A DNA stretch of 37,782 nucleotides from Promethearchaeota archaeon (GCA_019894975.1 JAGXNO010000037.1:1-37782); one strand, 5' to 3'; positions 12,685 to 37,372 are shown, counted from the stretch's first letter. Notes: generated by a model not told the origin, from the sequence alone. Made by a program: numbers and translations.

Positions 12685-12686
12685 AT

Positions 12687-13994: not shown

Positions 13995-15245
13995 TTACGG
14001 AAAAATTCCTCTTAAATCGTAAGCTCTTGCAATCCTTGATACTGCAATGATGTATGCCGCTGTACGAAGTGGTACATTTCTCTCTTTATATATTTTAAAT
14101 ACATCCTCAAAAGCTTCGATTATGATTCTTTTTAACTCTTCATTAATTCTATCTAAATCCCAAAAGTATGATTGAATGTCTTGAACGTATTCAAAATATG
14201 AAACACAGACACCTCCAGCATTTGCTAAAATGTCTGGAATAACATGTATTCCTTTTTCAAATAATATTCGATCTGCTTCAGGGGTAGTAGGGCCATTAGC
14301 ACCTTCTAAAATAATTTTGCAATTAATGTCTTCCACATTTTCCCTTGTAATCTGATTTTCAAGAGCAGCAGGCACTAAAATATCGCACTCTGTAGCCAGC
14401 AATTCTGCATTGGTAATTAATTTATTCCTATCATCCTTATAATCCTTTAAGTATTTACCTTGTTGGGTCCACTCTAATAATTTGTCAATTTCTAATCCTT
14501 CAGAATTATAAAGTCCTCCTGATATATCTGAAATCGCTAGTATTTTACAACCCCTTTCATATAACAAGCTTGCAATCCAACCACCGACATTACCAAATCC
14601 TTGAACTACAATAGATTGAGTTTCTAATTTCTTATTTAACTTTTCGCACATCTTATCAATTACAAAATATAAGCCCATCCCTGTAGCCGAATTTCTTCCC
14701 ACTGATCCCCCAATTTCAATTGGTTTTCCTGTAACAACTCCTGGTACAGCCCTTCCCTTTTGCATGCTGTATGTATCCATGATCCAAGCCATGATCTGAG
14801 CATTAGTATTTACATCTGGTGCTGGGATATCAATATCTGGTCCTATTATATTTATTATTTCCGTAGTAAATCTTCTTGTAAGTTTTTCTAATTCCTTTCT
14901 TGATAACTCTCGTGGATTCACACATATCCCACCCTTAGCTCCTCCTAAGGGTAATTTTAAAAGGCTACACTTCCAAGTCATCCATGTAGCTAATGCTTTT
15001 ATCTCATCGAGATTCACATCTGGAGAAAATCTTAAACCCCCTTTTCCAGGTCCTCGTACTGTAGAATGATGTACCCGATATCCTTCAAAAATTTGAAGTG
15101 ACCCATCATCCATGATAATAGGAATGCTAACGATCAAAGCTCTTTCAATTCTTTTAAGATATCGTGTTATATTGGCATCCAATCCCATCTCTTCTGCTAC
15201 AATATCAATTTGTTTCTTAGCCATTTCAAATGGATTTAAATCCAT
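13995..15245 (-). CDS. gdhA: Glutamate dehydrogenase (Glu/Leu/Phe/Val family)
   Basis: GPGKGG, TWKC, GGAKGG, PAPDVNT, GRNSATG, GFGNVG, EGANGP and PDILANAGGV. Confidence 0.95.
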   Translation of the reverse strand: MDLNPFEMAKKQIDIVAEEMGLDANITRYLKRIERALIVSIPIIMDDGSLQIFEGYRVHHSTVRGPGKGGLRFSPDVNLDEIKALATWMTWKCSLLKLPLGGAKGGICVNPRELSRKELEKLTRRFTTEIINIIGPDIDIPAPDVNTNAQIMAWIMDTYSMQKGRAVPGVVTGKPIEIGGSVGRNSATGMGLYFVIDKMCEKLNKKLETQSIVVQGFGNVGGWIASLLYERGCKILAISDISGGLYNSEGLEIDKLLEWTQQGKYLKDYKDDRNKLITNAELLATECDILVPAALENQITRENVEDINCKIILEGANGPTTPEADRILFEKGIHVIPDILANAGGVCVSYFEYVQDIQSYFWDLDRINEELKRIIIEAFEDVFKIYKERNVPLRTAAYIIAVSRIARAYDLRGIFP

Positions 15246-15276
15246 ATTTTCTCACCTCTTATTTTAAATGTATAAC

Positions 15277-16530
15277 TCATGGAAACAACCCCCGTAGTTC
15301 ATGTGCTCTGGCTAATCTCTCTGCTCCGATAGCATAAGCGGCTGTTCGATACGATATTGATTTTCCGTCAGATAAATTTATTACAGATTCAAAAGCTCTA
15401 AGTAAAATTCTTTTCATCTCACTATTAACTCTTTCTAGATTCCAAAAATATGATTGAATATCTTGAATATACTCAAAGTAGGAGACACATAAACCTCCAG
15501 CATTAGCAAGGATGTCTGGGATTACTAATATTCCTTTTTCATTTAGTATGGTATCTGCTTGTGAAGTAGTTGGACTATTGGCTCCTTCTAATATTATTTT
15601 GCAGTCAATATCACCGGCATTACCACTAAAGATCTGATTCTCTGTAGCTGCGGGGACTAAAATATCGCATGGTGTCCTAAACAGTTCTTCATTCGTAATG
15701 ATACCAACATCTTCATCCTTATAATTCTTTAATAAGTTCCCCTGTTGTTTCCAACTAATCATTTTATTGATATTTAGACCTTTATTTGAAAAAACTCCGC
15801 CCACTGAATCCGTTATTGCAATTATTTTACAGCCAACACTACTTAAAATTTGGGCAACTACACTCCCAACTTTACCAAATCCTTGAATTGCGATGGTACT
15901 TGATGTTAAATTGAAATTTTGCCTTTCACATAAAGATTGTAGAATATAATACATACCGGTTCCAGGTGCGTCTGTACGCCCAACTGTTCCCCCTATTTCT
16001 ATTGGTTTCCCAGTTACTACTCCAGGGATAGATCTACCTTTATTCATTGAATATGTATCCATGATCCAGGCCATTTCCTGTTCTCCAGTATTCATATCTG
16101 GAGCCAAGATATCAATATCTGGTCCAATCATATTTAATATTTCGGATGTATATCTTCTGGTTAATTTTCTCAACTCATCTTGTGATAACTTTTTTGGATC
16201 TACTCGAATTCCTCCTTTCGACCCTCCCAGAGGTAATCCTAAAAGGCTGGTCTTAAAAGTCATTAAAAATGCAAGTGCTTTAATTTCATCTAAGGAAACA
16301 AGGGGAGAGTATCTCAAACCTCCCTTAGCGGGACCACGTAATGTCGAATGATGAACTCTAAAACCTTCGAAAATTTCTAGCCTACCATCATCCATTACTA
16401 CGGGCATAGAGACTATTAAAGAACGCTCTACTTTCTTTAAATATTCAAGAGTGTTCGGTGCTAAGCCAATGACTTTCGCTGCGATATCAAGTTTCTTCTT
16501 AGCGCTTTCAAAAGGATTAATATTTCTCAA
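15277..16530 (-). CDS. Glutamate dehydrogenase paralog (more divergent)
   Basis: GPAKGG, TFKT, GGSKGG, APDMNT, GFGKVG and EGANSP; TTG start. Confidence 0.92.
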   Translation of the reverse strand: MRNINPFESAKKKLDIAAKVIGLAPNTLEYLKKVERSLIVSMPVVMDDGRLEIFEGFRVHHSTLRGPAKGGLRYSPLVSLDEIKALAFLMTFKTSLLGLPLGGSKGGIRVDPKKLSQDELRKLTRRYTSEILNMIGPDIDILAPDMNTGEQEMAWIMDTYSMNKGRSIPGVVTGKPIEIGGTVGRTDAPGTGMYYILQSLCERQNFNLTSSTIAIQGFGKVGSVVAQILSSVGCKIIAITDSVGGVFSNKGLNINKMISWKQQGNLLKNYKDEDVGIITNEELFRTPCDILVPAATENQIFSGNAGDIDCKIILEGANSPTTSQADTILNEKGILVIPDILANAGGLCVSYFEYIQDIQSYFWNLERVNSEMKRILLRAFESVINLSDGKSISYRTAAYAIGAERLARAHELRGLFP

Positions 16531-17974: not shown

Positions 17975-19012
17975 TTATAGGTTTACAAGACAATATTGCA
18001 CAAACTTCAAGGGATCATTAGCACATCCTCCTGAATCAAGACCTCCCAATTGCTCGATAATCTTTTGAGGGATGGCATTATCTACAATCCATAAATCTTT
18101 TAAATTGGTTAATGATTCTAATCCTTTTATCTGAATTATTTGATTTTGATTTAGATCAAGCGTTTCTAATTTTGTTAGCGGTTCTAATCCTTTAATTTCA
18201 CCAATACTATTTTCAGATAGAAATAAGTTCTCTAAATTTGTTAGTGAATATAATCCTTTAATATGGTTTATTTTATTTTGTTTTAAATTCAGGATTTTCA
18301 AATTATTGCAATGATCCAACCCTTTAATTTCTGATATCTGATTTGAATTTAACCAGAGAGTTTCTAAATGTTCCAGAGCATCAAGATTCTTTATTTCTTG
18401 AATTGAATTATTGTTTAGATAAAGACTTTTTAAGTTTTTTAGGTTTTCAGATCCTTCGATACTTGATATCTGATTACCAGCAATGTTCAATACTTCTAAA
18501 TTCTTTTGATTATCTAAGTTTTCTATTTTCTGTAATTGATTCCCCGCAATCCACAATACTTCAAGTTTATCTAATTTATCAAGTCCTTGGATTTTTGAAA
18601 TATTATTCCAGGATAAATCTAATCGTTGTAGTGAAGTGAGATTTTCTAAACCTTTTAATTCTTCAATCTGGTTCCCTCTAAGATATAATTCTTTCAGATT
18701 AGTTAATTTATCTAGACCTTTGATTTCCTTTATTTGGTTACTGATTAAATGTAGGATTTCAAGATTCTGTAGGTTATCTAATCCTTTTATCTCCCTTATA
18801 TCATTGCTCCCAAGATTTAAGATCTCAAGTTCATTTAGAGCATCAAGCCCTCTCATAATAATTATTTCATTAGAACTAAGTTCTAAATGTTTCAAACCAT
18901 CGATTTTATCCAACCCTATAATTTCCTCAATATCTCTGATTTCTAAAAGTCCTAAATCTAAAAATCCATTGTTTACTTCAAATTTACTTCCTGCCCATTC
19001 CACAGATTTCAT
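17975..19012 (-). CDS. Leucine-rich repeat protein (SDS22-like 22-aa repeats)
   Basis: About 12 tandem LxxLxLxxNxIxxIxGLxxL repeats; C-terminal cap PLKFVQYC. Confidence 0.92.
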   Translation of the reverse strand: MKSVEWAGSKFEVNNGFLDLGLLEIRDIEEIIGLDKIDGLKHLELSSNEIIIMRGLDALNELEILNLGSNDIREIKGLDNLQNLEILHLISNQIKEIKGLDKLTNLKELYLRGNQIEELKGLENLTSLQRLDLSWNNISKIQGLDKLDKLEVLWIAGNQLQKIENLDNQKNLEVLNIAGNQISSIEGSENLKNLKSLYLNNNSIQEIKNLDALEHLETLWLNSNQISEIKGLDHCNNLKILNLKQNKINHIKGLYSLTNLENLFLSENSIGEIKGLEPLTKLETLDLNQNQIIQIKGLESLTNLKDLWIVDNAIPQKIIEQLGGLDSGGCANDPLKFVQYCLVNL

Positions 19013-19581: not shown

Positions 19582-20289
19582 ATGGCAAATGCATTATATA
19601 TGAACGATTCCTACCTTAAAAGTTGGGAAGCAAAAGTAGTTGCTGTTAAAGATGACAAATATATTACACTAGACAATACAGCCTTTTATCCTAAGGGGGG
19701 CGGTCAACCCTGGGATGAAGGTTTTATCACTAAAGATCAGGAAAAATTTAGGATTGTTTATGTTGGTAAATTTTCAGGAGAGATCAGTCATGAAGTCGAT
19801 AAGCCAGGCTTAAAAATTGGTGATACTGTCTCTTGTGAACTTGATTGGGAACGTAGATATATATTTATGCGGTATCACACCGCATCTCATCTCATCTCTA
19901 ACATACTTTATAATGACGCTGACGCTAAGATCACTGGTAATCAAATCGAGATGGAAAAAACAAGAATGGATTTTTCTATGACTGATTATTCCCCCGAAAA
20001 ATTAAATGCTTTTGTAGACAAAGCCAACAATATAATAAACCAAGATCTTCCTATTACAATAGATTATATGACAAGACAAGAAGTCTTAGAAAAACCAGAA
20101 TTAGCTCGCTTAGCCGTTGGGTTACCTGAAAATATAAAAGAATTCCGTATTGTAAATATCGGGGATGTTGACAAACAAGTAGATGGTGGAACCCATGTTG
20201 ATCATCTAAAAGAAATTGGGACAATTGAGCTGACAAAAACAGTCAATAAAGGTAAAAATAACCGAAGAATGTATTTTATTCTCAAATAA
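19582..20289 (+). CDS. alaXM: Alanyl-tRNA editing protein AlaX-M
   Basis: TAFYPKGGGQPWD, MRYHTASH, RMDF, DGGTH and KGKNNRRMY; 235 aa. Confidence 0.92.
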   Translation: MANALYMNDSYLKSWEAKVVAVKDDKYITLDNTAFYPKGGGQPWDEGFITKDQEKFRIVYVGKFSGEISHEVDKPGLKIGDTVSCELDWERRYIFMRYHTASHLISNILYNDADAKITGNQIEMEKTRMDFSMTDYSPEKLNAFVDKANNIINQDLPITIDYMTRQEVLEKPELARLAVGLPENIKEFRIVNIGDVDKQVDGGTHVDHLKEIGTIELTKTVNKGKNNRRMYFILK

Positions 20290-20643: not shown

Positions 20644-22473
20644 ATGTTGGAAACTCCAGATCAAAAAAAATCAAATCTTATAGATGTTAAGGAATTTGGT
20701 AAACGATTTCAAGAATTTATGAAGAAATATGGTAAAATCTTGCAAGAAGCGCTAGCACTTCCTCCAGTCAGAAACACCTCATGGGGTACCTACGTAGAGG
20801 ATAATGCAAATCAATATCCAAACAATACTGCAATTAAATTTGAAGATATTTCGTTAACGTACAAGCAGTTTAATGAAATAGTTAATCAATATGCAAACTA
20901 CTTCATCTCTCTGGGATTGAAAAAAGGAGATATTGCTAAAGTCCTAATAAAGAATCGTGTAGAATATTTACTTGTATATACTGCAAATGCTAAAATTGGA
21001 GTAATTTCCTCCTTAATAAATACTGATTTGCGTCAAAAAACTTTAATCCATTGTTTAAACCTAACCCCTGGTAAAATTGTAATAGTAGGTGAAGAATGTT
21101 ATGATGCGTTCAATAAGGTTAAGTCTGAACTCAATTTAACAGACTCTTTAAAATTCTGTTTTATACCTGATTATAGAGAAATTGATATTCCTGAAGAATT
21201 CATTGATCTCCCTACAATTGTTAAAGATTTTCCTAAAGAAAATCCATCAACTACGACTGATGTACTCAACACTGATGTTCTCGCTTATCTATTTACTTCA
21301 GGAACTACTGGTTTACCCAAAGCCGCTCGTTTAACTCACCAAAGAGTTATAAGTCCTGGTTTTGCTTTTGCAAACCTATTTGCGGATCTTACTTCTGAGG
21401 ATACTATATATATACCACTACCCTTTTTTCATGGTACAGCTATTATGACGGGGTGGTCATCTATTTTGATGAATGGTGGAGCTTTAGCAATAGCCCGCAA
21501 ATTTAGCACTTCTCATTTTTGGGATGATTGTCGTAAATATAATGCAACAGCTTTTAATTATGTTGGAGAATTATGCCGATATTTAATAAATGTACCTCCT
21601 AAACCTAATGATAAAGATAATTCTGTAAGAGCCATCATTGGTAATGGATTACGACCAGAAATATGGAATGAGTTTAAAGAAAGATTTGATATACCTCTGG
21701 TTGGTGAATTTTATGGATCATCTGAAGGTAATATTGGATTTCTTAATCTTTTAAATTTCGATTGTACCGTTGGATATTCATTCGGAACGTTTGCTCTTGT
21801 TGAATACGACGTTGATGAAGATAAGCCTATAAGAGATGAAAAAGGATTCATGAAGAAAGTTAAGCAGGGAGAAGTCGGTCTTCTTTTAGGTGAAAGTGAA
21901 GGACCTAATAAATTCGCAGGATACACAGATAAAAAAGCAACGGAAGCTAAATTATTTCGGAATGCATTCAAAGAAGGAGATGAATGGTTTAATACGGGAG
22001 ATTTAATGCGAGATCAGGGATGTAATCATGCTCAATTTATAGATCGTCTAGGGGATACTTTTCGATGGAAGGGACATAATGTATCTACGACTGAAGTAGA
22101 AGAAATCCTTAACATATTTGATCACGTTTCAATGTCTTCTGTTTATGGTATAAAAATCCCTAACACCGATGGAAGGGCAGGAATGGCAGCGATAGTGCCT
22201 GAATCCGATACCAAGAGTTTTGACTTTCAAAAATTAGGAAGTGTTTTAAATGAAAACCTTGCTCCATATGCCATTCCAATTTTCATTAGACTCAAATCAG
22301 ATTTAGTAACTACATATAGCTTAAAATTTAAGAAACTGAATCTTAAAAAGGAGGGATTTAATATAAACAGCATTGAAGATCCTATACATATCAAACTACC
22401 AGATAAAGCTGAATACGTTCCCTTAACTAAAGAAATCTATGGTAACATCAACAATCATAAATATAGCTTTTAG
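20644..22473 (+). CDS. Long-chain acyl-CoA synthetase, FATP/VLACS family
   Basis: YLFTSGTTGLPKA, YVGELCRYL, GNGLRP, EFYGSSEG, FNTGDL and DRLGDTFRWKGHNVSTTEVE. Confidence 0.93.
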   Translation: MLETPDQKKSNLIDVKEFGKRFQEFMKKYGKILQEALALPPVRNTSWGTYVEDNANQYPNNTAIKFEDISLTYKQFNEIVNQYANYFISLGLKKGDIAKVLIKNRVEYLLVYTANAKIGVISSLINTDLRQKTLIHCLNLTPGKIVIVGEECYDAFNKVKSELNLTDSLKFCFIPDYREIDIPEEFIDLPTIVKDFPKENPSTTTDVLNTDVLAYLFTSGTTGLPKAARLTHQRVISPGFAFANLFADLTSEDTIYIPLPFFHGTAIMTGWSSILMNGGALAIARKFSTSHFWDDCRKYNATAFNYVGELCRYLINVPPKPNDKDNSVRAIIGNGLRPEIWNEFKERFDIPLVGEFYGSSEGNIGFLNLLNFDCTVGYSFGTFALVEYDVDEDKPIRDEKGFMKKVKQGEVGLLLGESEGPNKFAGYTDKKATEAKLFRNAFKEGDEWFNTGDLMRDQGCNHAQFIDRLGDTFRWKGHNVSTTEVEEILNIFDHVSMSSVYGIKIPNTDGRAGMAAIVPESDTKSFDFQKLGSVLNENLAPYAIPIFIRLKSDLVTTYSLKFKKLNLKKEGFNINSIEDPIHIKLPDKAEYVPLTKEIYGNINNHKYSF

Positions 22474-23897: not shown

Positions 23898-24842
23898 TTA
23901 TATATTAAAACCATCATCAAAATCATCAGATTCCTCAAGTTCAAATCGTTCTTTTTCCTCTTCTTTTTTCTCTTTTTTAAGTTCTTTTCGTTCCTTATAA
24001 GTAAGTTCATCATATCGTTTCACATATATTTCTTCATACCTTTCTCTCAATGCTTCAATATCTTCTACTTGACCTAATTTATCTTCAAGCCCATCTTCAA
24101 AGAAATAATTCTTTTTGAATTTTTTAGCAGGAATACCGACATAGATCCACTCCTTTTCTAGAACTTGCCCAACGGTTGTTACCGAGTTTGCTGCTAATAT
24201 ACAATTATGCCCAATATGAGTACCAGGCATAACTATTGAGTGTGACCCAATTCTCACCCCATCCTCGATAGTAGTTTTCCTCATTATTAAAAGATTTCCA
24301 ATGATGCAAGATGATTGTACAATTGCTCCTTGACCGACTACAACATCCTTCCCAAATTCAATCATTTCTGTATCAACCCAACCTTCGAATAGTGAATTTG
24401 AAATTTTAGTTTTTACCCCAAATGCTTTAAAGCAAATATTATCTAAAATTCCTGGGAAGGGGAATCTATGTGCAAGCCAAACAGGCCATTTCTTAATCGT
24501 ATTGCGAAGACTCCAATAGCGATAGTCTCTATCCGCTTTAACTCTTAAGAATACTCCTTCCCGGGGTTTATAAATTGCATTAATTATCATCAATAATATT
24601 TTGGTAAAAAATATTGCAGCAAATACAATTGTTACATACATTAGAATAGCTAAAAGTGGAAGATATGTATAAAAATGAACTGGTCGAGGGTCGATTGGCA
24701 AAAGTTGCCAATAAACCCAAAGTTCTAATAGAAGTGGTATAATGCTTGCCCAAATAAGTAGAAAATATAAAATCAAATAGCTCTTTTTTGCTAAAACTGA
24801 CGCTGTAAAAGGTCCTATACGCATTGTGTTTGGAATACTCAT
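23898..24842 (-). CDS. Membrane LbH acyltransferase-like protein, module type C
   Basis: 2 TM helices, KPREGVF..DYRYWSLR, then hexapeptide repeats (IGSHSIVMPGTHIG, WIYVGIPA); ATGA overlap with the upstream gene. Confidence 0.8.
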   Translation of the reverse strand: MSIPNTMRIGPFTASVLAKKSYLILYFLLIWASIIPLLLELWVYWQLLPIDPRPVHFYTYLPLLAILMYVTIVFAAIFFTKILLMIINAIYKPREGVFLRVKADRDYRYWSLRNTIKKWPVWLAHRFPFPGILDNICFKAFGVKTKISNSLFEGWVDTEMIEFGKDVVVGQGAIVQSSCIIGNLLIMRKTTIEDGVRIGSHSIVMPGTHIGHNCILAANSVTTVGQVLEKEWIYVGIPAKKFKKNYFFEDGLEDKLGQVEDIEALRERYEEIYVKRYDELTYKERKELKKEKKEEEKERFELEESDDFDDGFNI

Positions 24843-26704
24843 TTTTTCTCATCCTCTTTTTCTGAATTAAATAACTCTTTTTTATCCTTATCTATATTTA
24901 CTTCATGTTCCATCTCATATTTTTTTGCCCCATCTACATCACGCTTTAATATAACATCTCTCCTTTCTTCTGCATATTTATTTTCCTTCAATTTAATTGC
25001 TGGATAACCAAAGTATACCCACATTGGTTCTAATATTTGATTTACTGTTGTCGAAGAAAGTGCCCCTATAACAGTTTCTTTTCCAATTATTGTCCCTGGA
25101 GCAATAGTTGTAGCACCACCAACCATTATATAATCTTCACATACAACTCTCTTTATAATTAAATATTTTCCTACAACCATTGAAGACATTATGGTTGCGC
25201 CCTGACCAATTAAATTTTTCCTCCCAAATGTAATGAATTCAGCATCACACCATGCATCATTAAGATGGCTGGAAGAATCCATATCAACACCAAATAATTT
25301 CAAAGCGACTAAATCGGTCCAAGGAAGAGGAGAATTATGCATAAACCATAGAGCTATTTTCTTTATTTCAGTTCTCAACATCCAGAACTCGAAATCTTTA
25401 TCCCCAATTTCTGCTTTAAAAATCCCTTCTTTTGGTTTATGTATTAGATTTACAAAAATTAAAAATAATTTACTGAAAAGAATACAAGCTAGAATAAATA
25501 AGTAAATAGAACTGATTATTGCAATAGGAAGAAAAGATAATATAAACACCCAATTTTTATCCTCCAAATACCAATACCAAAGTATTGAGACTATTAATCC
25601 TGCTAACCAGAAAATTGGCAAGTAAACTGCCAAAAACTTTATATTAACTCTACTTATAGCAGAACTTGTAGTGAAATCGAGAGCTAAATCATCAGTTGTT
25701 AATCTTTCAATATCAATTTTTTCTTCTTCTAAATCCTCGATTTTTTGTTCTATTTCTACTGGTTCATCAGAAACATTTTTCGAAAACTCTTCTGCTTTTA
25801 ACCTTTTTAAAAGTTTTTTATCTTTATATCCTTCAATGTTTTCATTCTTTTCCAAATCCTTTGGAGTTAATCCTAAATAGAGCATGATTTTCTTTCTAAA
25901 TATTTTTCTCATAGGTATTCCCCAATAATAGTTGTTGCCTTTGATAATACTATGTTTACTTGTAGAGGCTAATGGTAGAAAATAAGATTCATTCATTACT
26001 TCTGATCCTGGGCCAATTCCCGTCATGGCAGCTCCAGTTACGTTATCACCGATATTAATTTTAAAATAGATAATATTTCCAAAAACCCCTTGAACTAAAT
26101 GGCTAGCTAAGGCAGTATTGACACCTATATAACAATTTGATCCTATTTCAACAAATTTATCATTAACTAATGATTCTTCTAAAGTTGAACCCTTTCCAAT
26201 CTTACTAGAACCCACAAAATTGAAAAACCAATTGCTTAACCATGAAAAAGCACCTTTCACAAAGCTATTTTTTCCATATTTGATCATAAAACTTCTTATA
26301 TGATAATAATTTGCTGTTCTACTACGAATATTTCGAGGAATTAATCCAGATTTCGAGGGAGACATCTTTTCAGTAAATTTCCAGAAAAATCGCGTGAATA
26401 AACCTACCAAAAATAAATGAAGTAAATAACATCCAATAAGTACTAAGGGCATTGAAAGAAAAGTAACTAATGGTCTGGCTTGTATAAAAATATCCAGAAA
26501 ATTAGTAGTTTCTAAAACAAATGGATAGAAAAATTTAAGAAGATACACGAAAAAGAAAATGCCAGGAATTACCCATGAGGAATAAAAAATACACATAAAT
26601 ATCAAAATATATAAGTGAAACTGAAGATTTACATCTTCTTTAACAACTTCATTCTGATTAGGGGGGGGGTCAATATCTTCAGATTCTTCACTCATTTGTA
26701 CCAA
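24839..26704 (-). CDS. Membrane LbH acyltransferase-like protein, fused modules A+B
   Basis: Two TM-hairpin + hexapeptide units; the halves match 34579..35499 and 33686..34582. Confidence 0.8.
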   Translation of the reverse strand: MVQMSEESEDIDPPPNQNEVVKEDVNLQFHLYILIFMCIFYSSWVIPGIFFFVYLLKFFYPFVLETTNFLDIFIQARPLVTFLSMPLVLIGCYLLHLFLVGLFTRFFWKFTEKMSPSKSGLIPRNIRSRTANYYHIRSFMIKYGKNSFVKGAFSWLSNWFFNFVGSSKIGKGSTLEESLVNDKFVEIGSNCYIGVNTALASHLVQGVFGNIIYFKINIGDNVTGAAMTGIGPGSEVMNESYFLPLASTSKHSIIKGNNYYWGIPMRKIFRKKIMLYLGLTPKDLEKNENIEGYKDKKLLKRLKAEEFSKNVSDEPVEIEQKIEDLEEEKIDIERLTTDDLALDFTTSSAISRVNIKFLAVYLPIFWLAGLIVSILWYWYLEDKNWVFILSFLPIAIISSIYLFILACILFSKLFLIFVNLIHKPKEGIFKAEIGDKDFEFWMLRTEIKKIALWFMHNSPLPWTDLVALKLFGVDMDSSSHLNDAWCDAEFITFGRKNLIGQGATIMSSMVVGKYLIIKRVVCEDYIMVGGATTIAPGTIIGKETVIGALSSTTVNQILEPMWVYFGYPAIKLKENKYAEERRDVILKRDVDGAKKYEMEHEVNIDKDKKELFNSEKEDEKK

Positions 26705-26834
26705 TTCATCTTAGTTTAAAGCATTATACAATAAATTTTATTCAATTAAAAAGCAATTGATACTTATAATACTTTAATAGATATTTTCGGTTCCTTTTAA
26801 ATTTATGAATCTCAGTTAAATAAACGAATTTCGC

Positions 26835-27230
26835 ATGAAAAATAGATGTAAAGACTGTGGAAAATGCTGTTTAGAGACAGAAATGATTCTCTCTCAAAAT
26901 GATATTAACTCAATAACACACAATCATCAAAGTAATATTAAGGTGAAGGAATTTGCTTTTATGAATAATTCTAAGCAATATCAATTGAAAAATAAAAAGG
27001 GGCATTGCGTATTTTTAGAGTCATCCTTAAAGATTTGCACGATTTATCAATATCGACCTCAAGGTTGTAAATTTTATCCTTTGATTTTTGATTTAAATCG
27101 CAACATCTGCAAATTTGATGAAGATTGCCCTAGAACAATTCTCTTCTACAAGAATAAGGAAAAATTAAGGACAACTTGTAAAAAATTAAAGCGATACTTG
27201 AAAATAGAGCTAGCAATAAAGATTAAATAG
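26835..27230 (+). CDS. YkgJ-family cysteine-cluster protein (CxxCxxCC)
   Basis: CKDCGKCC, CVFL and CTIYQYRPQGCKFYP. Confidence 0.88.
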   Translation: MKNRCKDCGKCCLETEMILSQNDINSITHNHQSNIKVKEFAFMNNSKQYQLKNKKGHCVFLESSLKICTIYQYRPQGCKFYPLIFDLNRNICKFDEDCPRTILFYKNKEKLRTTCKKLKRYLKIELAIKIK

Positions 27231-27246
27231 AATAAGTCAGGTATCA

Positions 27247-29076
27247 TTATACTAAATCTTTTTTATCTTCATCTACATTAACCTCATGTTCTACTTCAAA
27301 CTTTTTCTCTTCATCAACATCTCTCATCATGAGGATTTCTCTCTGTAAATCAGCATACTTATTCTCTTTTAGTTTTATAACAGGAACTCCAAAATAAATC
27401 CATCCCGGTTCAATAATTTGGTTATAAGTGGTTGTACTAATTGCACCTATGACAGAATCCTTACCAACTATCGTTCCGGGTGCTATAGTTGCTTCACCGC
27501 CAATGACAGCATAATCACCTATTATAACATCTTTTATCAATAAGTATTTTCCTATAACCATTGATGACATAACAGTCGCACCCTGTCCAATAATAACTTT
27601 ATCCCCCAATGTAATAAACTCACTATCACACCATGAATCCCACATCGTACTCGAAAGTGTCATTTTTATTCCAAACCACTTAAAAGCTATTATATCCATC
27701 CAAGGGAGAGGCCAGTTACGTATCAGCCATAGAACAATCTTCTTCAGTTCAGTTCGTAAGCACCAGAACTCGAAATCTTTATCTCCTAATTCTGCTTTAA
27801 ATATTCCCTGTTTCGGTTTATGGATAAGGTTGATTAATATTAAAAATAATTTACTAAAAAATAAACTAGCCATTATAAAGATAAACCACATCAGAAAGAC
27901 CATCAACCCCAAGAAAAATGCAAGGATGTACCATATTTTGACATAATAGGTAAATGTATAAAACATTATAGTCACTACCATACCAGAAAGCCAGAAAATA
28001 GGAATATAAACGGCTAAAAATTTAATATTTACTCTTGAAATTGCACTGCTTGTGGTAAAATCAACTGCCAGATCTTCTTTTGTTAAGGTGTTGATATCAA
28101 TTTTATCAGTATCAGAATTTACAATTATTTGTTCTTGCGTGGGGTGTTCTTTAGAGATTATAAAAGATTCTTTAGATTTTGAATTTGGTAATGAGGAATT
28201 ATCTCTATAGCCTTCAATATTTTTGTTTTTCTCCAAATCTTCAATTGATATATCTAATAGTTCCATAGTTTTTTTTCTGAAAATTTTCCTTAATGGCAGG
28301 CCCCAATAGTAATTATTTCCTTTTAATACACTATGTTTAGTAGCTGAAGCTAATGGAAGTAAGTAAGCATTATCACTGACTTCTGTTCCAGGACCAAGTA
28401 TGTTCATACCAGCTGCTGTAAAATTATCTCCTACTTTTACCTTAAAATACGAAATATTGCCAAAAACTCCCTCAACTGCATGACTAGCTAAAGATGTGTT
28501 TGCTCCAACATAACAGTTCTTTCCCACTTCAATAAATTTATCGTTACTTGGAGACTCCTCGAATGTTGTACCCTTTCCGATTTTGCTTGCCCCGATAAAG
28601 GTGGAAAACCAATTATTTAACCACGGAAAAATTCCTTTCATATATACATTCTTCCCTTGCTTAATCAAAAAAGATCTGATGTGATAATACTTTAAAGTCT
28701 TGCTTTGAAAATTTCTTGGTATTATTCCATCTTTGGTTGGAGACTTTTTTTCACTATTAATCCAGAAAAGACGAGTAATAATTCCTACAAGAAATAATCG
28801 GATAAGATAGCAGCCAATAAGGACCAAGGGCATAGTTGTAAATGCTACTACTGGTTTAAATTTAGTAAATAATTCTATGAAATTAGTAATTTCTAAGAAA
28901 TTTGGTAAGAAAAAAAAAATCATATACCCTATAAAAAAAAGGGCAGGGATAAGTAATGAACCCAAGTAAATAGTGAAAAGCATAACGAGGTAACTAAAAT
29001 ATTGAAACTTAATTTCTTCTTTTATAGTTTCATTCTTTGACCCAATTTCACTTGATGTAATCTCAGTTTCTACCAT
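27247..29076 (-). CDS. Membrane LbH acyltransferase-like protein, fused modules A+B (second copy)
   Basis: Colinear with 24839..26704 (DFTTSSAISRVNIKFLAVY, GDKDFEFW, ASHAVEG). Confidence 0.8.
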   Translation of the reverse strand: MVETEITSSEIGSKNETIKEEIKFQYFSYLVMLFTIYLGSLLIPALFFIGYMIFFFLPNFLEITNFIELFTKFKPVVAFTTMPLVLIGCYLIRLFLVGIITRLFWINSEKKSPTKDGIIPRNFQSKTLKYYHIRSFLIKQGKNVYMKGIFPWLNNWFSTFIGASKIGKGTTFEESPSNDKFIEVGKNCYVGANTSLASHAVEGVFGNISYFKVKVGDNFTAAGMNILGPGTEVSDNAYLLPLASATKHSVLKGNNYYWGLPLRKIFRKKTMELLDISIEDLEKNKNIEGYRDNSSLPNSKSKESFIISKEHPTQEQIIVNSDTDKIDINTLTKEDLAVDFTTSSAISRVNIKFLAVYIPIFWLSGMVVTIMFYTFTYYVKIWYILAFFLGLMVFLMWFIFIMASLFFSKLFLILINLIHKPKQGIFKAELGDKDFEFWCLRTELKKIVLWLIRNWPLPWMDIIAFKWFGIKMTLSSTMWDSWCDSEFITLGDKVIIGQGATVMSSMVIGKYLLIKDVIIGDYAVIGGEATIAPGTIVGKDSVIGAISTTTYNQIIEPGWIYFGVPVIKLKENKYADLQREILMMRDVDEEKKFEVEHEVNVDEDKKDLV

Positions 29077-29212
29077 AGCGGATTAGAATTTTGAGAGTTT
29101 TTTAATGATTTTTATGATATAATTAATAAATAAGAACCTTTCTCTAAAAAATTCGATGATTAGAATAAATGATCCTCAAACAAATAAAAAGAACCAAAAA
29201 ATTGAATGAATT

Positions 29213-30220
29213 TTAAATGTGGATAATAGTTTTAATGTGGTGATGAATTTCTTCAAAAGAGCTAACAGCTTTTTCGATATCTTCTAGTTTATATTTTTTA
29301 GAGATTAATTTATCGACTTTTACCTTTCCAGAGGTTAATCCATCAATAGCCTTGTCAAAAGGTCCACATCTACTACTATAAATTGTTAATTCACGAATAA
29401 CAACATCAGTCAAGTCTATAGGTGTATCAATACCATGAGTGCTTTTTATATGAATCTTCCCTCGAGTTCTACAGGAGGCAATTACATTTTTTAAGGCTAA
29501 AGGATTACCTGTAGTATCTACTACTATATCTGCACCTAACCCATTTGTTAGACCTTTAATTTTATTTGGGATATTTGGTCCTTCAAATCTATTTAAAGGA
29601 TAGTGAGCTCCAAATTTCTTAGCTAATGCTACTTTTTTATGAGAACCATCTACAGCAAATATTTTTAATCCTTTTGACAATGCAACTTGTGTCAACAATA
29701 ATCCTAATTTACCGAGTCCAAATATTGCCATCGTTCTATCATTTTGATCTAATGGCATTACCTCAAACGTCTGATATGCTGCTGCTAAAGGCTCAATAAA
29801 TGTGGCATCATCATACGATAATGAATCCGGTATTTCATGAAGCATGTAAGAATCAACTGCTATATATTCAGCTAAAGCTCCATCAATATCAATTCCTAAT
29901 GCTTTTCTGGATACACATTGCGAGTGATTGTCCTGTTTACAATAATAACATTTAAAATCAATATTGCTATTAATTTCTGAAGTAACTCTTTTATTTAACC
30001 ATTCTTGATTAACTTCACTCCCTACTTTAATTACATCGCCAGCAAATTCATGACCAAGAATAAGTGGGGTGGGTGTAGGTAAAGTTTTGTTTATAATAGC
30101 TAAGTCTGTCCCACATATCCCCACAGACTTGACACGAATCAATACTTGAGATTCATTAATTTTAGGATCTTTTACGGTTTTAACTGTTAGATTTTTTCCA
30201 TCAAATACAGCAGCTTTCAT
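29213..30220 (-). CDS. Zinc-dependent medium-chain alcohol dehydrogenase
   Basis: GICGTD, LGHE, DxxCxxC..C structural site, IEPLA and GLGKLG. Confidence 0.92.
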   Translation of the reverse strand: MKAAVFDGKNLTVKTVKDPKINESQVLIRVKSVGICGTDLAIINKTLPTPTPLILGHEFAGDVIKVGSEVNQEWLNKRVTSEINSNIDFKCYYCKQDNHSQCVSRKALGIDIDGALAEYIAVDSYMLHEIPDSLSYDDATFIEPLAAAYQTFEVMPLDQNDRTMAIFGLGKLGLLLTQVALSKGLKIFAVDGSHKKVALAKKFGAHYPLNRFEGPNIPNKIKGLTNGLGADIVVDTTGNPLALKNVIASCRTRGKIHIKSTHGIDTPIDLTDVVIRELTIYSSRCGPFDKAIDGLTSGKVKVDKLISKKYKLEDIEKAVSSFEEIHHHIKTIIHI

Positions 30221-30462
30221 ATTTTAACTAAAATAGATTTAATTTAAAATGACATTAATCTATGTTTACATTTTAAATTTTTTATCTAAATATTGAATTT
30301 ATGCAATAATGAGAAAAGAAAAAATAATTAATATATTATTTTAAGCTAATTTCAAACCAGACATATTCATCAGAACATTTGAGACAAAAATCAAGAATAA
30401 TTTAATACTAATTTAACTGCTTGCGCATTTTTACGTCTTTACATCTTTCCTAAATGATCAAC

Positions 30463-31728
30463 TTACACCTCGAAAGCCCATTCTCCATTTCGCATTATAG
30501 GTTCTGTGGTTTCATCTTCTAGTATTCCATTTACATTCATATCTCTTGAACCAATCATAAGATCAAGATGAATAGAACTTTCATTACCTCCCGCAGCCAT
30601 GAATTCTTCTTTAGTAAGTGTTCTCCCATTTTTTAGTGAAGAACGAAAACCTTGACCAAGCGCAATATGATTTGAAGCATTTTCATCAATTAGGAGATTG
30701 AAGTAGAGCAAATCTGTCTTGGATATTAGAGAACTATGAGGAACCAAGGCTATCTCTCCTAACCTTCGAGCTCCTTCATCAATACTAATTATTTTATTTA
30801 TAATATCATTACCAACTCTAGCATGTGCTTCTATTATACGCCCTTTCGAAAACTTAAGAATGCAGTCTTCGATAATTTGACCCTCAATTAAAACAGGTTT
30901 AGTAGTTTTTACAATTCCTTCCACCTGATCTTTAACTGGAGTCGTAAAAACCTCTTCGGTTGGTATATTTGGTTGAAAACTGATTCCATTGTTTGTTTGT
31001 AGGCTTCCTCCCTCCCAGATATGGTTCTTAGGCAGCCCAATTGTTAAATCTGTTTCTGGAGAAATAAATTTTAAAGCTTGATACTGCTTGTCATTTAAAT
31101 AATTACATTGTTTCTTGAGATTTTCATCATGCTTTTCCCAAGCAGATACTGGATTTTCTTCTTTTATTCGACAAATTTCAAAAATGATATCCCACAATTT
31201 CTGAACTCTTTCATTTGAATGAATGTGTGGAAGTATCTTATCTGCCCAAGGTTGGTTTGGCGCAGCAATTATTAACCACTTGTAATCAAATTGGTTAGTA
31301 AGATCTGAAAGAGGTTTAAGGTGCTTAAGTAGGAAGAGTTGAAACTTTAAAATTACACTAAGGTCCACCCCTTCCAATAAATCAGGCCTCGGGCTCATTA
31401 TGTCAAGATAGGCATCTCCTGCTTGAGCTATATCGAGTTTCGCATCAATTCTCCATTTTGGATATAATCTAAGGGATTTTTTAGACCCGTATTTAAATCG
31501 TATTGGGCGTAATTGCTCATCTGCCCATACTACATCAACTAAACTAGCACCCATCTGATATGCTTTTTTCGCAATTATTCGTACTAACGGAGCTGCTTCG
31601 AAAGATACGCCGTCATGAGCAATACTCGGCCCTCCAATTAATAATCTCTGTTTAGGCTGAAAATTCAATCCGACTTTTAATATCACTTCAGCATATTTTT
31701 CCAACTTTTTTTCAAACTCAGATAACAT
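30463..31728 (-). CDS. Aminopeptidase, peptidase M29 family (second paralog)
   Basis: PNIPTEEVF, LGEIALV, DENASNHIALG and HLDLMIG; ATG at 31728 after a GGTGG SD. Confidence 0.92.
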   Translation of the reverse strand: MLSEFEKKLEKYAEVILKVGLNFQPKQRLLIGGPSIAHDGVSFEAAPLVRIIAKKAYQMGASLVDVVWADEQLRPIRFKYGSKKSLRLYPKWRIDAKLDIAQAGDAYLDIMSPRPDLLEGVDLSVILKFQLFLLKHLKPLSDLTNQFDYKWLIIAAPNQPWADKILPHIHSNERVQKLWDIIFEICRIKEENPVSAWEKHDENLKKQCNYLNDKQYQALKFISPETDLTIGLPKNHIWEGGSLQTNNGISFQPNIPTEEVFTTPVKDQVEGIVKTTKPVLIEGQIIEDCILKFSKGRIIEAHARVGNDIINKIISIDEGARRLGEIALVPHSSLISKTDLLYFNLLIDENASNHIALGQGFRSSLKNGRTLTKEEFMAAGGNESSIHLDLMIGSRDMNVNGILEDETTEPIMRNGEWAFEV

Positions 31729-31906
31729 TAAACTTCCACCAATTTTGGATAGAAACAATTATAATATTTGATATTAAGGTCAAAATCCTTTATATATGTA
31801 TCCCGGATCTTAATAATTAATAATCGAGTGATTATATGAAAAACATTTAAGATTCAATTTGAATTCCTACACTTACTCTATTAATATATGATATTAGAAA
31901 GATATC

Positions 31907-32023
31907 ATGAAACTGTTTTCCTTGCTAATCAAACCCGCATCGGCAGATTGTAACCTAAGATGTGAATACTGTTTTTATATAGATTATATTTGTTTAAAAT
32001 ATAATGCAAATCAAACCGAGTGA
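31907..32023 (+). pseudogene. N-terminal fragment of an anaerobic sulfatase maturase-like radical SAM enzyme
   Basis: MKLFSLLIKPASADCNLRCEYCFY (KP..CNLxCxYCFY signature), then a stop after 38 aa. Confidence 0.8.
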
Positions 32024-32024
32024 A

Positions 32025-32810
32025 TTAATTTGCATAAAATTTCTTTCTTCTATCCGTAAAAATATCATTGAACTTATTGAGTTTTTTATCTCTTGCTTTT
32101 TCAATATCAATATCTACAAAATCTAAAAAACTCTTATTAGATGGAGCAGTAGAGAGTATTTGGCCATTATAAGATGTAATCTGACTACCACCTGTAAATT
32201 TAAAGTTATCCTCCCCTCTAGTTTCTTTTCCAATTCTATTAGCCGTAATAGCATAAACTCGATTTTCTAAGCAGCGAGTCACCATTGCATTCTGGCAGTA
32301 TGGTAGGACTAAATTAGCAGGGTGAGCTATTATATCGGCACCTAGTAGTGCAAGTGACCTTGCAGTTTCAGGAAAGATCCAATCAAAACATATCATAATA
32401 CCTATATTAATCCCTTTAACATCATAAACTTTGAAAGGTTTATCCCCAGAATCAAACCATAACTTTTCTTTGTAATATAAATGGAGTTTTCTATAAGTAC
32501 CAATTACTCCATTTTTTGATACTAACATTGCTGAGTTAAATACCTTATCCTCTTCTTTTTCTGGAAATCCTCCAACAACAATAGCGCCTGTATTTTTAGC
32601 CAATTTAATTAGAAATTGAGATGTAATACCATTGACATCTTCAGCTAATGAATAAACCTCTTCTTTTGATATAAACGTGTAACCGGTCGAGAATAATTCT
32701 GGCAATACAAGAATATCTGCTTTCAGATTAACTGATAAGTTCTCTATTTCCCTAAAATTTTCTTCTTTATTACCAAAGATAGGATTTGTTTGAATATATC
32801 CAACTTTCAT
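32025..32810 (-). CDS. Carbon-nitrogen hydrolase (nitrilase superfamily amidase)
   Basis: E-K-C triad: LPELF, YRKLH and ICFDW; ANRIG. Confidence 0.92.
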   Translation of the reverse strand: MKVGYIQTNPIFGNKEENFREIENLSVNLKADILVLPELFSTGYTFISKEEVYSLAEDVNGITSQFLIKLAKNTGAIVVGGFPEKEEDKVFNSAMLVSKNGVIGTYRKLHLYYKEKLWFDSGDKPFKVYDVKGINIGIMICFDWIFPETARSLALLGADIIAHPANLVLPYCQNAMVTRCLENRVYAITANRIGKETRGEDNFKFTGGSQITSYNGQILSTAPSNKSFLDFVDIDIEKARDKKLNKFNDIFTDRRKKFYAN

Positions 32811-32831
32811 TGTCTTTGTGATAAATTACGT

Positions 32832-33689
32832 TTAAATTTGTTTATCTATTCGCATTGTATATAAATCTTCAGTTTTTATATCACTAGTTACTTCCTTTTC
32901 TATTTCCTCTATGATAACACTTTCTAAACCATCTTCAGAGAACACATTCTTTTTAAACTTTTTTGCAGGAGCCCCTAAGTAAATCCATCCCTCTTCTAAT
33001 TCTTGACCTACTGTCGTCAAAGAACTTCCTGCTAAAATTGAATCTTTTTTCATATGAGTTCCAGGCATAATTATGCTATGAGCACCAACTACTGCATTTT
33101 CTTCTAGAATGGTTTTTCTCATAATAAATAAATTTCCAACTATTACAGCTGATTGGACAATTGCACTTTGACCAATAACTACATTTTTACCAAAATCTAA
33201 GAATTCCGTGTCAACAAATCCTTCAAAAAGAGAGTTAGAAAACTTAGTCCTAACTCCAAAAATTTTTAAACATATATTATTCATGAAAGGAAATGGAAAT
33301 TTATGTGAAATCCAGAGTGGCCATTTCTTAATTACACTTCTTATACTCCAATATCGATAATCTTTATCAGAAGAATGTCTGAGAAATATCCCTTCCCTAG
33401 GCTTGTGGATAAAATTAACAATAGTTAACATTAGTTTTGCAAAAATGAGAGAAACAAATATCGCAGATAAGTACATTACAAAAACCATGAGAGGTAAAAA
33501 GAGATAAAAATGAACATTATATTCATATCCTATATTATAAATATCCCACAATAGCCAGAATTCGAATTGAATCGTAAAAATACTGATCCAAATCAATAGA
33601 ATATAAAAGATTAAATATCTCTTTTTTGCCAATGTTAGAGTCGTATTAGGTCCTACTTTTAAACTTGAGGGCACAGACATCCTTTTCAC
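32832..33689 (-). CDS. Membrane LbH acyltransferase-like protein, module type C (second copy)
   Basis: Homologous to 23898..24842 (LAKK.Y, KPREG, DYRYWS, SNSLFEG.VDTE); GTGA overlap. Confidence 0.8.
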   Translation of the reverse strand: MKRMSVPSSLKVGPNTTLTLAKKRYLIFYILLIWISIFTIQFEFWLLWDIYNIGYEYNVHFYLFLPLMVFVMYLSAIFVSLIFAKLMLTIVNFIHKPREGIFLRHSSDKDYRYWSIRSVIKKWPLWISHKFPFPFMNNICLKIFGVRTKFSNSLFEGFVDTEFLDFGKNVVIGQSAIVQSAVIVGNLFIMRKTILEENAVVGAHSIIMPGTHMKKDSILAGSSLTTVGQELEEGWIYLGAPAKKFKKNVFSEDGLESVIIEEIEKEVTSDIKTEDLYTMRIDKQI

Positions 33690-34582
33690 TCCTCCTTATT
33701 AGAATTATTTAGCAATTTTTTTTTATCTTCATCAATATTTACTTCTTGCTGAACTTCATACTTAGTTTCTTCATCTACATTCTTTCTATAAATTATATCC
33801 CGTCTTTGTTCAGCATATTTGTTTACTTTTAATTTTCTTGCAATATGTGGTCCTAGGTAGATCCAACCTGGTTCTAAATATTGATTTGGAACAGTTGCAG
33901 TAAAAGCACCTACTACTGATTCATCGCCCATTATAGTTCCTGGGGAAATATTTGATACCCCTCCAACAACAGTATAATCACCTAGAATAACTTTTTTGAT
34001 AATTAAATACTTACCCACAACCATCGAGCTCATTACCACACAGCCTTGACCTACTGTAACATTTCTCCCAAATTCAATAAATCCTCCATCCGCCCAAGCA
34101 TCTTGCATGTGACTGGAAAAGTCTACTCTAATTCCTAACCATCTAAACCCCCACATAACAATCCAAGGTAATGGTCCATTATTCATAAACCAAAAAACTA
34201 ATTTTTTTAACTCTACTCTCAATCTCCAAAATTCAAAATCTTGATCACCTTCTTCGGCTCTAAAGACCCCTTCTTTTGGTTTATGAATCATATTTATCAT
34301 GAGAAGGAATCCTTTTGTAAAAAGTGCGACACCAAAAACAAACACAAAATATAAAATAAATATCCAGACGGGTAGAAGAAACATAGTAACTACCCAATTA
34401 TTTATTATCATTGACATATCAAAAAAAAAAGCAGTCGCCATATAACCTGAGGCCCATATAATAGGAATATAGAAAATTAGAAATTTGATACCGATTTTAC
34501 TAACAGCACTAGTAGTTACGAAATCAATGGCATAATCAATCTTCTCTGAATTTAATTTCTCTTTATCTAATGAATCACTCAT
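33686..34582 (-). CDS. Membrane LbH acyltransferase-like protein, stand-alone module B
   Basis: IDFVTTSAVSKIGIKFL, HKPKEG, DFEFW and MSSMVVGKYLII match the C-halves of the AB fusions. Confidence 0.8.
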   Translation of the reverse strand: MSDSLDKEKLNSEKIDYAIDFVTTSAVSKIGIKFLIFYIPIIWASGYMATAFFFDMSMIINNWVVTMFLLPVWIFILYFVFVFGVALFTKGFLLMINMIHKPKEGVFRAEEGDQDFEFWRLRVELKKLVFWFMNNGPLPWIVMWGFRWLGIRVDFSSHMQDAWADGGFIEFGRNVTVGQGCVVMSSMVVGKYLIIKKVILGDYTVVGGVSNISPGTIMGDESVVGAFTATVPNQYLEPGWIYLGPHIARKLKVNKYAEQRRDIIYRKNVDEETKYEVQQEVNIDEDKKKLLNNSNKEE

Positions 34583-35499
34583 TTATTTCTTCTCTTGATT
34601 TTTTCTTTTTTTTTAATTTCTTGCGAACTAATTTTTAGTTCTTCTGCTCTTTCTAAATCTTCTTCAGATATTTGTAGGTAATCTATAACTTTTCTTTTGA
34701 AAATCTTTCTTAAGGGGGTTCCAAAATAAAAATTATCTCCTTTCAGAATATTATATTTTGTAGCTCCTGTCATAGGTAACCACCATGAATTGTTACCTGT
34801 GTCTACACCAGGAGCAAAACAGTTGAATGCTGCAGCAGTAACATTATCACCGATTTTAACTTTAGCAAATGATATATTACCGAACACTCCTTCCACTGCA
34901 TGGGAACTTATTGCCACATTAGTGCCCAAATAAGAATTTTCTCCGATTGAAACAAAACGATCCCCTGCAATCTGTTCTTCAATTACAGATCCTTTGCCAA
35001 TTTTATTGGTCCCTATGAAATTAAACATCCACTTGAGTAACCATGGAAACGGTCCCCTTGAAAAAGCATTTTTAGGATATTTTATGATAAAACTTCGAAA
35101 ATGATAATAGTTTAAAGTTTTACTTGGAATATTCCTTGGAATTATTCCTGATTTAGAAGGGGATCGTTTCTCTGAAATACTCCAAAACCATCGAGTAATT
35201 AAAGCTGTAATAAATAAATGGATTAAGTAGCAAATTATAACTATTAAAGGTAAGGTTAAAGAGGCTATTAAAGAAGGTAAATTCGTAAATAACGAAATAA
35301 AGTTTCTTACGTCTAAAAAGAAAGGTAAATAGAGTAGCATAATAAACATCATAAATATTATAGCAGGTATTAAAAATGAGCCATAGTAGATGATAAAAAA
35401 GGCTGGTAAATACCAATTTAATTGTAAGTCTATTTCTTCTTTGATGAGATGATTATTAGGTTCAATGGTTTCTTTTTCAGATTCTTTTGGTTCACTCAC
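34579..35499 (-). CDS. Membrane LbH acyltransferase-like protein, stand-alone module A
   Basis: SPSKSGIIPRN, YYHFRSF and SSHAVEGVFGNI match the N-halves of the AB fusions. Confidence 0.8.
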   Translation of the reverse strand: MSEPKESEKETIEPNNHLIKEEIDLQLNWYLPAFFIIYYGSFLIPAIIFMMFIMLLYLPFFLDVRNFISLFTNLPSLIASLTLPLIVIICYLIHLFITALITRWFWSISEKRSPSKSGIIPRNIPSKTLNYYHFRSFIIKYPKNAFSRGPFPWLLKWMFNFIGTNKIGKGSVIEEQIAGDRFVSIGENSYLGTNVAISSHAVEGVFGNISFAKVKIGDNVTAAAFNCFAPGVDTGNNSWWLPMTGATKYNILKGDNFYFGTPLRKIFKRKVIDYLQISEEDLERAEELKISSQEIKKKEKIKRRNK

Positions 35500-36565: not shown

Positions 36566-37372
36566 TTATTTTTCCTTTTTCGGGAACCAAGGAAAAAATG
36601 CACTTGTTCTTTTTTTATACTCCGCATACTTGTCATCAGCTCTGTATCGAAAGTTTAACAATCTTATTCCTGAGACTTTAATAATCATATAAGTAATGAA
36701 GAATGGACCGATGACAGAAATAAAGCCAAAAGGTACTGCTAAAGCGATTACAAAGATTCCCCACCATTGAATAACTTCTCCAAAATAATTTGGATGCTGA
36801 GTATACTTCCATAATCCTCGGTCCATTACCTTCCCCTTGTTTTCAGGATTTCGTTTAAATTTATAAAGTTGGTAGTCACCGAGTGTTTCGAAAAGGAAGC
36901 CTATAAACCAAATGATTCCACCAAGCCATAGAGTAATTCCTGAGAAATCTAAAATCTTTAATGAAGGATTATCACTCGTATTTACAAACCATACTGGGAA
37001 GGCGACAATAAAAATTACGAGTCCTTGGAACATATACACCCGTATAAAACTTTTCAAAACTATATTAGTTTTCCATCGTCTTCTCATAGCTTGATACCGA
37101 TAATCTTCTGGTTTGCCTCGATTTCTTATAAAAACATAGGTTGCTAACCTCATTGCCCATATAAAAACTAAGATTGTTACGATAATTTGCCGAATGTTTA
37201 CCTCATTGATGAGAATGGTATATATGACTAAGCTGGATAGTGCTACTATGAAATATCCCGGCCCATAAAATACATCCATTAATCCATTATTCTTCTTAAT
37301 TGTCCCAATGACAAAAGCTATAAAGAGGTAAACAAGTAGAAATAAAGCAGAATAACCAATAGTTGTTAACAT
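36566..37372 (-). CDS. DUF1295 / steroid 5-alpha reductase-like membrane protein
   Basis: EDYRY, ETLGDYQL, GLWKYTQHPNYFGE and TSAFFPW. Confidence 0.9.
   Translation of the reverse strand: MLTTIGYSALFLLVYLFIAFVIGTIKKNNGLMDVFYGPGYFIVALSSLVIYTILINEVNIRQIIVTILVFIWAMRLATYVFIRNRGKPEDYRYQAMRRRWKTNIVLKSFIRVYMFQGLVIFIVAFPVWFVNTSDNPSLKILDFSGITLWLGGIIWFIGFLFETLGDYQLYKFKRNPENKGKVMDRGLWKYTQHPNYFGEVIQWWGIFVIALAVPFGFISVIGPFFITYMIIKVSGIRLLNFRYRADDKYAEYKKRTSAFFPWFPKKEK

Follow-up and report, generated by a model that had tools for sequence, protein, structure and literature searches.

Do six related minus-strand genes in Promethearchaeota DNA encode a split terminal domain of epsilon-poly-L-lysine synthetase (Pls), or a membrane enzyme of their own? 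The genes occupy positions 23898 to 35499 of a 37,782-nucleotide stretch (GCA_019894975.1 JAGXNO010000037.1:1-37782, hereafter the window), and an initial annotation had read them as a stand-alone Pls-type system built from three kinds of module, A, B and C. Judged from sequence comparison and predicted structures, they probably represent an apparently undescribed family of Lokiarchaeia, a stand-alone, membrane-anchored heterotrimeric left-handed beta-helix (LbH) acyltransferase, probably with one active site. The triad belongs to the LbH acyltransferase superfamily and does not group with Pls.

The six open reading frames are present (Table 1), and splitting the two fusions among them gives eight homologous modules, each a transmembrane (TM) hairpin followed by an LbH. 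All-against-all BLAST of the eight confirmed both the six-gene, eight-copy count of the initial annotation and its sorting into three subtypes. Identity within a type is 48-57% for A, 49-62% for B and 54% for C; between types it is 31-39% for B and C and 20-25% for A against B or C. Each module has two hydrophobic segments, at least one with a Kyte-Doolittle value above 2, then a linker of P..G form, a basic helix of the pattern Y/F-H/W-x-R and, last, a hexapeptide stretch closing with G-x-P. The LbH fold is indicated by matches to the Pfam hexapeptide family PF00132 (above cut-off for AB2 and C3), by AlphaFold models and by Foldseek matches; the AlphaFold2 model of A1 has two long helices and then the beta-helix (pLDDT 81, pTM 0.68). 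Since TM2 is directly trailed by basic residues and the inter-helix loop is short, the modules are, by the positive-inside rule, consistent with an LbH on the cytoplasmic side. The ATGA/GTGA coupling described earlier held in part: ATGA overlaps join A1 to B1 and AB3 to C3, but the GTGA at C1 is probably not a real start. The methionine at ATG 33680, 5 nt past the B1 stop, is conserved in at least 90% of 42 homologues, so C1 probably starts there and not at the overlapping GTG. A sigma-70 promoter and terminator scan, ill-suited to archaea, gave results at or below chance. Related loci, 53-88% identical, come from Promethearchaeota genomes, in agreement with the proposed Asgard host, which is of Loki type.

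Gene order argues strongly that A, B and C assemble 1:1:1. The A-B-C order given in the initial annotation is retained in nearly all of 52 related loci. Among adjacent module-gene pairs in the related loci, B precedes C in 76, A precedes B in 54, B precedes A in 4 and A precedes A in 2; the four B-A pairs are tandem AB fusions, and neither A before C nor C before B was ever seen. Natural fusions (AB in hundreds of cases, CA on contig C94 of the present genome, at locus L046 and elsewhere, and full C-A-B) all obey the same cycle. The complete C-A-B protein, 797 aa long, is found in two Promethearchaeota genomes (P0203 and P0348), between a zf-AN1 gene and genes for SAM synthetase, RNase HII and fibrillarin. 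This is the chromosomal place of the present genome's locus made of a CA fusion and B, and the split and fused states are therefore interchangeable. The AlphaFold2 model of the triple fusion reaches pLDDT 80 and pTM 0.82 over three modules, against a pTM of 0.68 for A1 alone, and is consistent with one packed three-module unit. Six TM helices in three pairs, each pair followed by an LbH, are found in this model as in every A+B+C set. The cyclic order and the natural triple fusion thus support the 1:1:1 heterotrimer suggested at the outset. A complex prediction for A1+B1+C1 was counted neither for nor against, its control that kept A having scored too close to the real set. AB2 is without a C gene of its own, and in relatives a single C3 follows two or three AB fusions; C3 is therefore probably shared by AB2 and AB3.

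It is highly improbable that A, B and C form separate homotrimers that are merely co-regulated. Most LbH enzymes are homotrimeric, and lone His-bearing modules do exist (on contig C153 of this genome and in Freyarchaeum), but B and C are without the histidine, the AB, CA and CAB fusions would be geometrically awkward for homotrimers, and the cyclic order is strictly retained.

The histidine pattern points to one of the three subunits as the catalyst. Of 252 A modules, 250 carry a catalytic-type histidine (His200 in A1). At the same position B modules carry Ser in 243 of 246 and His in 3, and all 57 C modules carry Ala, Ser, Thr, Phe or Val (His in 0/57); the few exceptions are possibly mis-split CA fusions. 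His200 aligns with the loop histidine of galactoside and maltose acetyltransferases, in a loop that interrupts the helix; LacA His115 and its maltose acetyltransferase equivalent are the established general base. Its counterpart in Pls module C3 is the histidine of a QTHL motif, and Pls modules C1 and C2 are without it in all eight aligned synthetases, Acinetobacter PosA included. By alignment, both systems keep one such histidine per three modules. Since only A retains the LbH catalytic histidine, as only C3 does in Pls, there is a fairly strong case that only A is catalytic, which would leave one likely active site per A+B+C set. B and C are highly conserved, with 66% mean column identity, and so are maintained pseudo-enzyme subunits and not decaying copies.

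A non-enzymatic or carbonic-anhydrase-like membrane trimer (a ligand sensor, scaffold or metal site, comparable to the heterotrimer of gamma-carbonic anhydrase, gamma-CA, and CAL in plant complex I) has some precedent, because LbH heterotrimers that keep one live site or none have been described (PMC8290278), and there are weak gamma-CA matches. We judge it very unlikely: the conserved residues include one histidine in the LbH of A but no three-His zinc set in B or C, and the single acyltransferase-type histidine of A is nearly invariant.

Turning to the Pls resemblance, homology and fold likeness stood up, but descent from a split Pls did not. The modules are genuine, if remote, homologues of the Pls/PosA terminal module: matches to TIGR02353 range from E 1e-14 to 0.02, with the best at 53.7 bits against a curated cut-off of 423.1, and outside the archaea the shapes most like the A1 model belong to nonribosomal peptide synthetase (NRPS) clusters with PP-binding and hexapeptide domains (Atlas TM 0.58 and 0.55). 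Profile comparison gave E 3e-18 for A-B, 1e-66 for B-C and 2e-10 to 4e-16 for Pls modules among themselves; every Asgard-to-Pls pair stood at 5e-8 or worse. Two trees, one of them a mixture-model tree including a 42%-GC PosA gene, separate all Pls from all Asgard modules by a 100/99 branch, and approximately unbiased (AU) tests reject both A joined to Pls C3 (p 8e-5) and B joined to Pls C1 (p 6e-47). These trees are unrooted, with long branches and differing composition, and their deep branch could be inflated. Independent of that branch is a 100/99 clade of B, C and the single "BC" gene of a sister family, beside His-bearing relatives, which places the split of B from C, on these trees, at a duplication within Lokiarchaeia. 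We therefore rejected descent from a split Pls: A, B and C resemble one another much more closely than any Pls module, the trees show separate triplications, and module orthology is rejected. As far as sequences tell, the Asgard triad is a parallel triplication and not pieces of Pls. Searches for longer relatives of A1 gave only two-module fusions among the matches listed and no NRPS fusion, which is weak evidence; neither by sequence nor by fold did searches of the PDB turn up a Pls terminal domain or a TM-LbH structure; and a search for papers on Pls structure, with incomplete literature coverage, found nothing relevant.

Simpler arrangements occur in other Asgard lineages. In Ca. Freyarchaeum deiterrae there are five single modules, unlinked to one another, with the histidine in all four that were aligned, and a Helarchaeota-type genome has a module pair with the histidine in both. 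An A gene followed by one His-less BC gene is the arrangement in the cultured Promethearchaeum syntrophicum (DSAG12_00342, QEE14529.1) and in Ca. Harpocratesius repetitus. The simplest reading of these sequences is a series from homotrimer through a 1:2 A:BC complex to A:B:C, the order of events being inferred without a root. Intermediate states of the Loki triad would then persist in living lineages, and the same asymmetric design apparently arose twice, by internal triplication in bacteria for Pls and by gene duplication in Loki. As models of the Pls terminal domain, the small stand-alone Asgard versions are simpler, and since a cultured organism carries the two-gene form, lipidomics and expression tests are feasible. 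A distant three-module protein, P0340 (922 aa, JGI), seems to bear a histidine in each module.

What, then, would the single site transfer, and to what? We lean, somewhat beyond an even chance, toward an acyl-CoA-dependent acyltransferase acting on a membrane-bound acceptor. In LbH acyltransferases the site for the pantetheine arm, be it that of acyl-CoA or of an acyl carrier, lies between subunits. In this 95%-complete genome, neither a PP-binding protein (PF00550) nor a phosphopantetheinyl transferase (PPTase; PF01648) was found, and no NRPS-type adenylation domain rose over cut-off (TIGR01733 stayed below it); the six module-bearing proteins contain no adenylation or thiolation domain. The detachment from NRPS adenylation and carrier domains noted in the initial annotation is thus borne out. 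About 20 acyl-CoA-ligase-like genes are present in the genome. A long-chain acyl-CoA synthetase (20644-22473, plus strand; NF006134 over cut-off) lies 1.4 kb from C3, and 8 of 20 related loci have such a gene close to C3. With many acyl-CoA ligases and no carrier protein found, the gene content argues moderately for acyl-CoA as the likely donor.

The same absence of a carrier protein, PPTase and NRPS adenylation domain over cut-off disfavors amide polymerization, the other activity the initial annotation had raised. A Pls-like amide polymerase or ligase could still receive amino or acyl units as CoA thioesters or adenylates from a separate enzyme, with a carbon-nitrogen (C-N) hydrolase trimming or recycling the product. 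The layout of six TM helices and three LbH domains, as in the PosA model (PMC10522769), and the one-His-in-three pattern fit such an enzyme, as does the amidase-family gene directly after C1. A possible supplier is a GH3-like 546-aa protein encoded near triad genes in 31 loci (e.g., L039:10620-12260, minus strand), which has no Pfam match, a conserved CHxSGTT motif and GH3-like Atlas neighbors and is a candidate uncharacterized adenylating enzyme. Its gene is single-copy in 44 of 60 family genomes but was not found in the other 16 or in the present genome, and in several genera it is placed on a different contig or some 100 kb off. We rejected it as an obligatory partner on these grounds. Given also that the triad arose separately from Pls, we consider the polymerase distinctly unlikely.

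As to the acceptor, the heptaprenylglyceryl O-acetyltransferase model YvoF (NF058585) is the best or second-best NCBIfam match for A1, B1 and both fusions (E 5e-15 for the fusions; best 55.6 bits against a cut-off of 300), and a haloarchaeal YvoF homologue acetylates ether lipids (PMC9179154). Together with the TM bundle, this match suggests by analogy a membrane-bound acceptor, and more weakly a lipid. If the acceptor is a membrane lipid, the family bears on Asgard membrane chemistry. The same complex might instead acetylate sugars, namely lipid-linked glycans or surface polysaccharide precursors, as WcaF/HpsU/AntD-type LbH enzymes do. The nearest solved folds are sugar O- and N-acyltransferases, the WcaF model matches at E 1e-9, and a membrane anchor would suit dolichol-linked acceptors; yet no glycosyltransferase or sugar-nucleotide gene is among the annotated conserved neighbors, and this makes sugar acetylation rather unlikely in our view.

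The C-N hydrolase gene is probably in the same operon as C1 and would fit an amide product, the functional link being weak, and the DUF1295 gene, found on either side of the triad, is a possible partner. In relatives, the ABC and AB loci often have heliorhodopsin and UvdE UV-endonuclease genes (L073:453-1289 and L025:7711-8619) between them. A small CxxCxxCC protein (26835-27230, plus strand) is encoded between AB2 and AB3 on the opposite strand and is kept there in 12 related loci.

Several observations weigh against an acyl-CoA-dependent transferase for a membrane-bound acceptor. The matches to YvoF, TIGR02353 and WcaF are all weak and similar in score, and so do not name the acceptor. In 27 of 50 loci the triad also keeps an unrelated ribonucleotide reductase gene as a neighbor; the gene linkages are therefore weak evidence, and we rejected synteny alone as evidence of function. 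The A module of the C94 type, whose loop is shorter, may serve another function.

In the mechanism we propose for the acyl-CoA-dependent enzyme, A, B and C would form a pseudo-threefold ring, with six TM helices in the membrane and three LbH domains packed on its cytoplasmic face. A alone would supply the general-base histidine, giving one working interface of three, and B and C would be pseudo-enzyme partners that shape the A site. The donor would be a pantetheine thioester, most likely acyl-CoA, and the acceptor an OH or NH2 group on a molecule bound to the membrane (the head group of an ether lipid or some other lipid-linked compound) that the TM bundle would present. Several A or AB paralogues may share fewer C subunits, as AB2 and AB3 would share C3, which suggests several specificities. 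A bolder version, which we hold to be unlikely, is an undescribed membrane biosynthetic machine of Lokiarchaeia, independent of Pls, that began as a homotrimer bearing the histidine, took on a two-subunit and then a one-site, three-subunit form, and puts fatty-acyl or aminoacyl groups onto ether lipids (ester- or amide-linked hybrids) or makes a carrier-free polyamide.

The triad is widespread in its own group. A C-alignment search gave matches in 111 of 111 same-family genomes (up to 14 each), in 12 of 12 from the rest of the order and in 3 of 7 from other orders of the class. In an A-alignment search of 151 genomes of the phylum, strong matches were restricted to the same order, with weak single matches in 8 genomes of three other families; the triad is thus not pan-Asgard among the genomes searched. 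Matches of 70-88% identity titled Hod-, Thor-, Hermod- or Odinarchaeota hinted at a wider range, which we rejected because the GTDB-based search confines strong A matches to one order. The family is multicopy and present in every searched genome of this Loki family, yet carries generic annotations only, and a search for papers on it in Asgard archaea found nothing relevant, literature coverage being incomplete.

Elsewhere in the same genome (G000) are five further modules, on contigs C94, C105 and C153, the C105 pair counting as two (Table 1). The C94 set is a circular permutation of A-B-C, and other genomes have the full C-A-B fusion at that locus. The C105 pair has orthologous pairs in Promethearchaeum and Harpocratesius and is probably, from these sequences, a separate two-subunit enzyme. 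The remainder of the window holds two tandem glutamate dehydrogenase genes (13995-16530, minus strand), two adjacent genes for Fe-S/CCG-domain (HdrD/GlpC-like) oxidoreductases (11323-13958, minus strand) whose family matches are weak, a leucine-rich-repeat protein gene (17975-19012, minus strand) and a gene for an AlaXM-like tRNA-editing protein (19582-20289, plus strand) just under cut-off.

Table 1. Triad genes, neighboring genes and further modules of the same genome (window positions unless a contig is given).
Feature	Position	Strand	Remarks
Gene A1, 306 aa	34579..35499	-	TM hairpin + LbH; His-bearing putative catalytic subunit
His200 of A1 (SSH motif)	34900..34902	-	Aligns with LacA His115 and the His of Pls C3 QTHLF
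Gene B1, 298 aa	33686..34582	-	TM hairpin + LbH; Ser replaces His; ATGA overlap with A1
Gene C1	32832..33689	-	TM hairpin + LbH; Ala replaces His; likely start ATG 33680
AB2 fusion, 609 aa	27247..29076	-	His199 at 28480-28482; without own C gene
AB3 fusion, 621 aa	24839..26704	-	His202 at 26099-26101; ATGA overlap with C3
Gene C3, 314 aa	23898..24842	-	His-less subunit; charged tail
Carbon-nitrogen hydrolase (PF00795)	32025..32810	-	21 nt downstream of C1; downstream of triad in 40/50 related loci
DUF1295 membrane reductase-like gene (steroid 5-alpha-reductase/ICMT-like)	36566..37372	-	Triad-linked in 30/50 loci, either side
Third complete set, C+A fusion then B	G000:C94:18925-21217 (L001:6926-9218)	-	
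Two-gene pair of related modules	G000:C105:17355-18937 (L002:7356-8938)		First with His, second without
Lone A-like module	G000:C153:21695-22498 (L003:7696-8499)		His-bearing; conserved across order

Among known systems, the closest in architecture is the C-terminal polymerization domain of Pls and PosA, the synthetases of epsilon-poly-L-lysine and delta-poly-L-ornithine, that of PosA being described from an AlphaFold model as six TM helices and three LbH domains in pseudo-threefold arrangement (PMC10522769). In both systems three repeats of a TM pair, two helices and an LbH form one pseudo-threefold unit, and the loop histidine is in one repeat only (QTHLF of Pls C3; Asgard A). The Asgard triad differs in having no adenylation or carrier domain attached, none having been found in the rest of the genome either, in being spread over one to three genes, and in modules that are not orthologous to C1, C2 and C3, having arisen by a separate triplication. 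YvoF shares the LbH O-acetyltransferase fold, acts on ether lipids and is the top or second family match of A1, B1 and the fusions, but is about 170 aa long, has no TM hairpin in its model and is a single gene, not three subunits. The best solved-fold matches are the maltose and galactoside O-acetyltransferases (Maa and LacA) and AntD (TM about 0.55-0.60 by target), which have the histidine at the same loop position as Asgard A; unlike the triad, they are soluble homotrimers with three equal sites. Finally, the gamma-CA/gamma-CAL assembly of plant complex I is a membrane-attached LbH heterotrimer with a full catalytic set at one interface only (PMC8290278). It differs in its zinc three-His chemistry, its attachment by an amphipathic helix, its place within complex I and its lack of TM hairpins, but by this analogy the principle of a one-site LbH heterotrimer is not new in kind.

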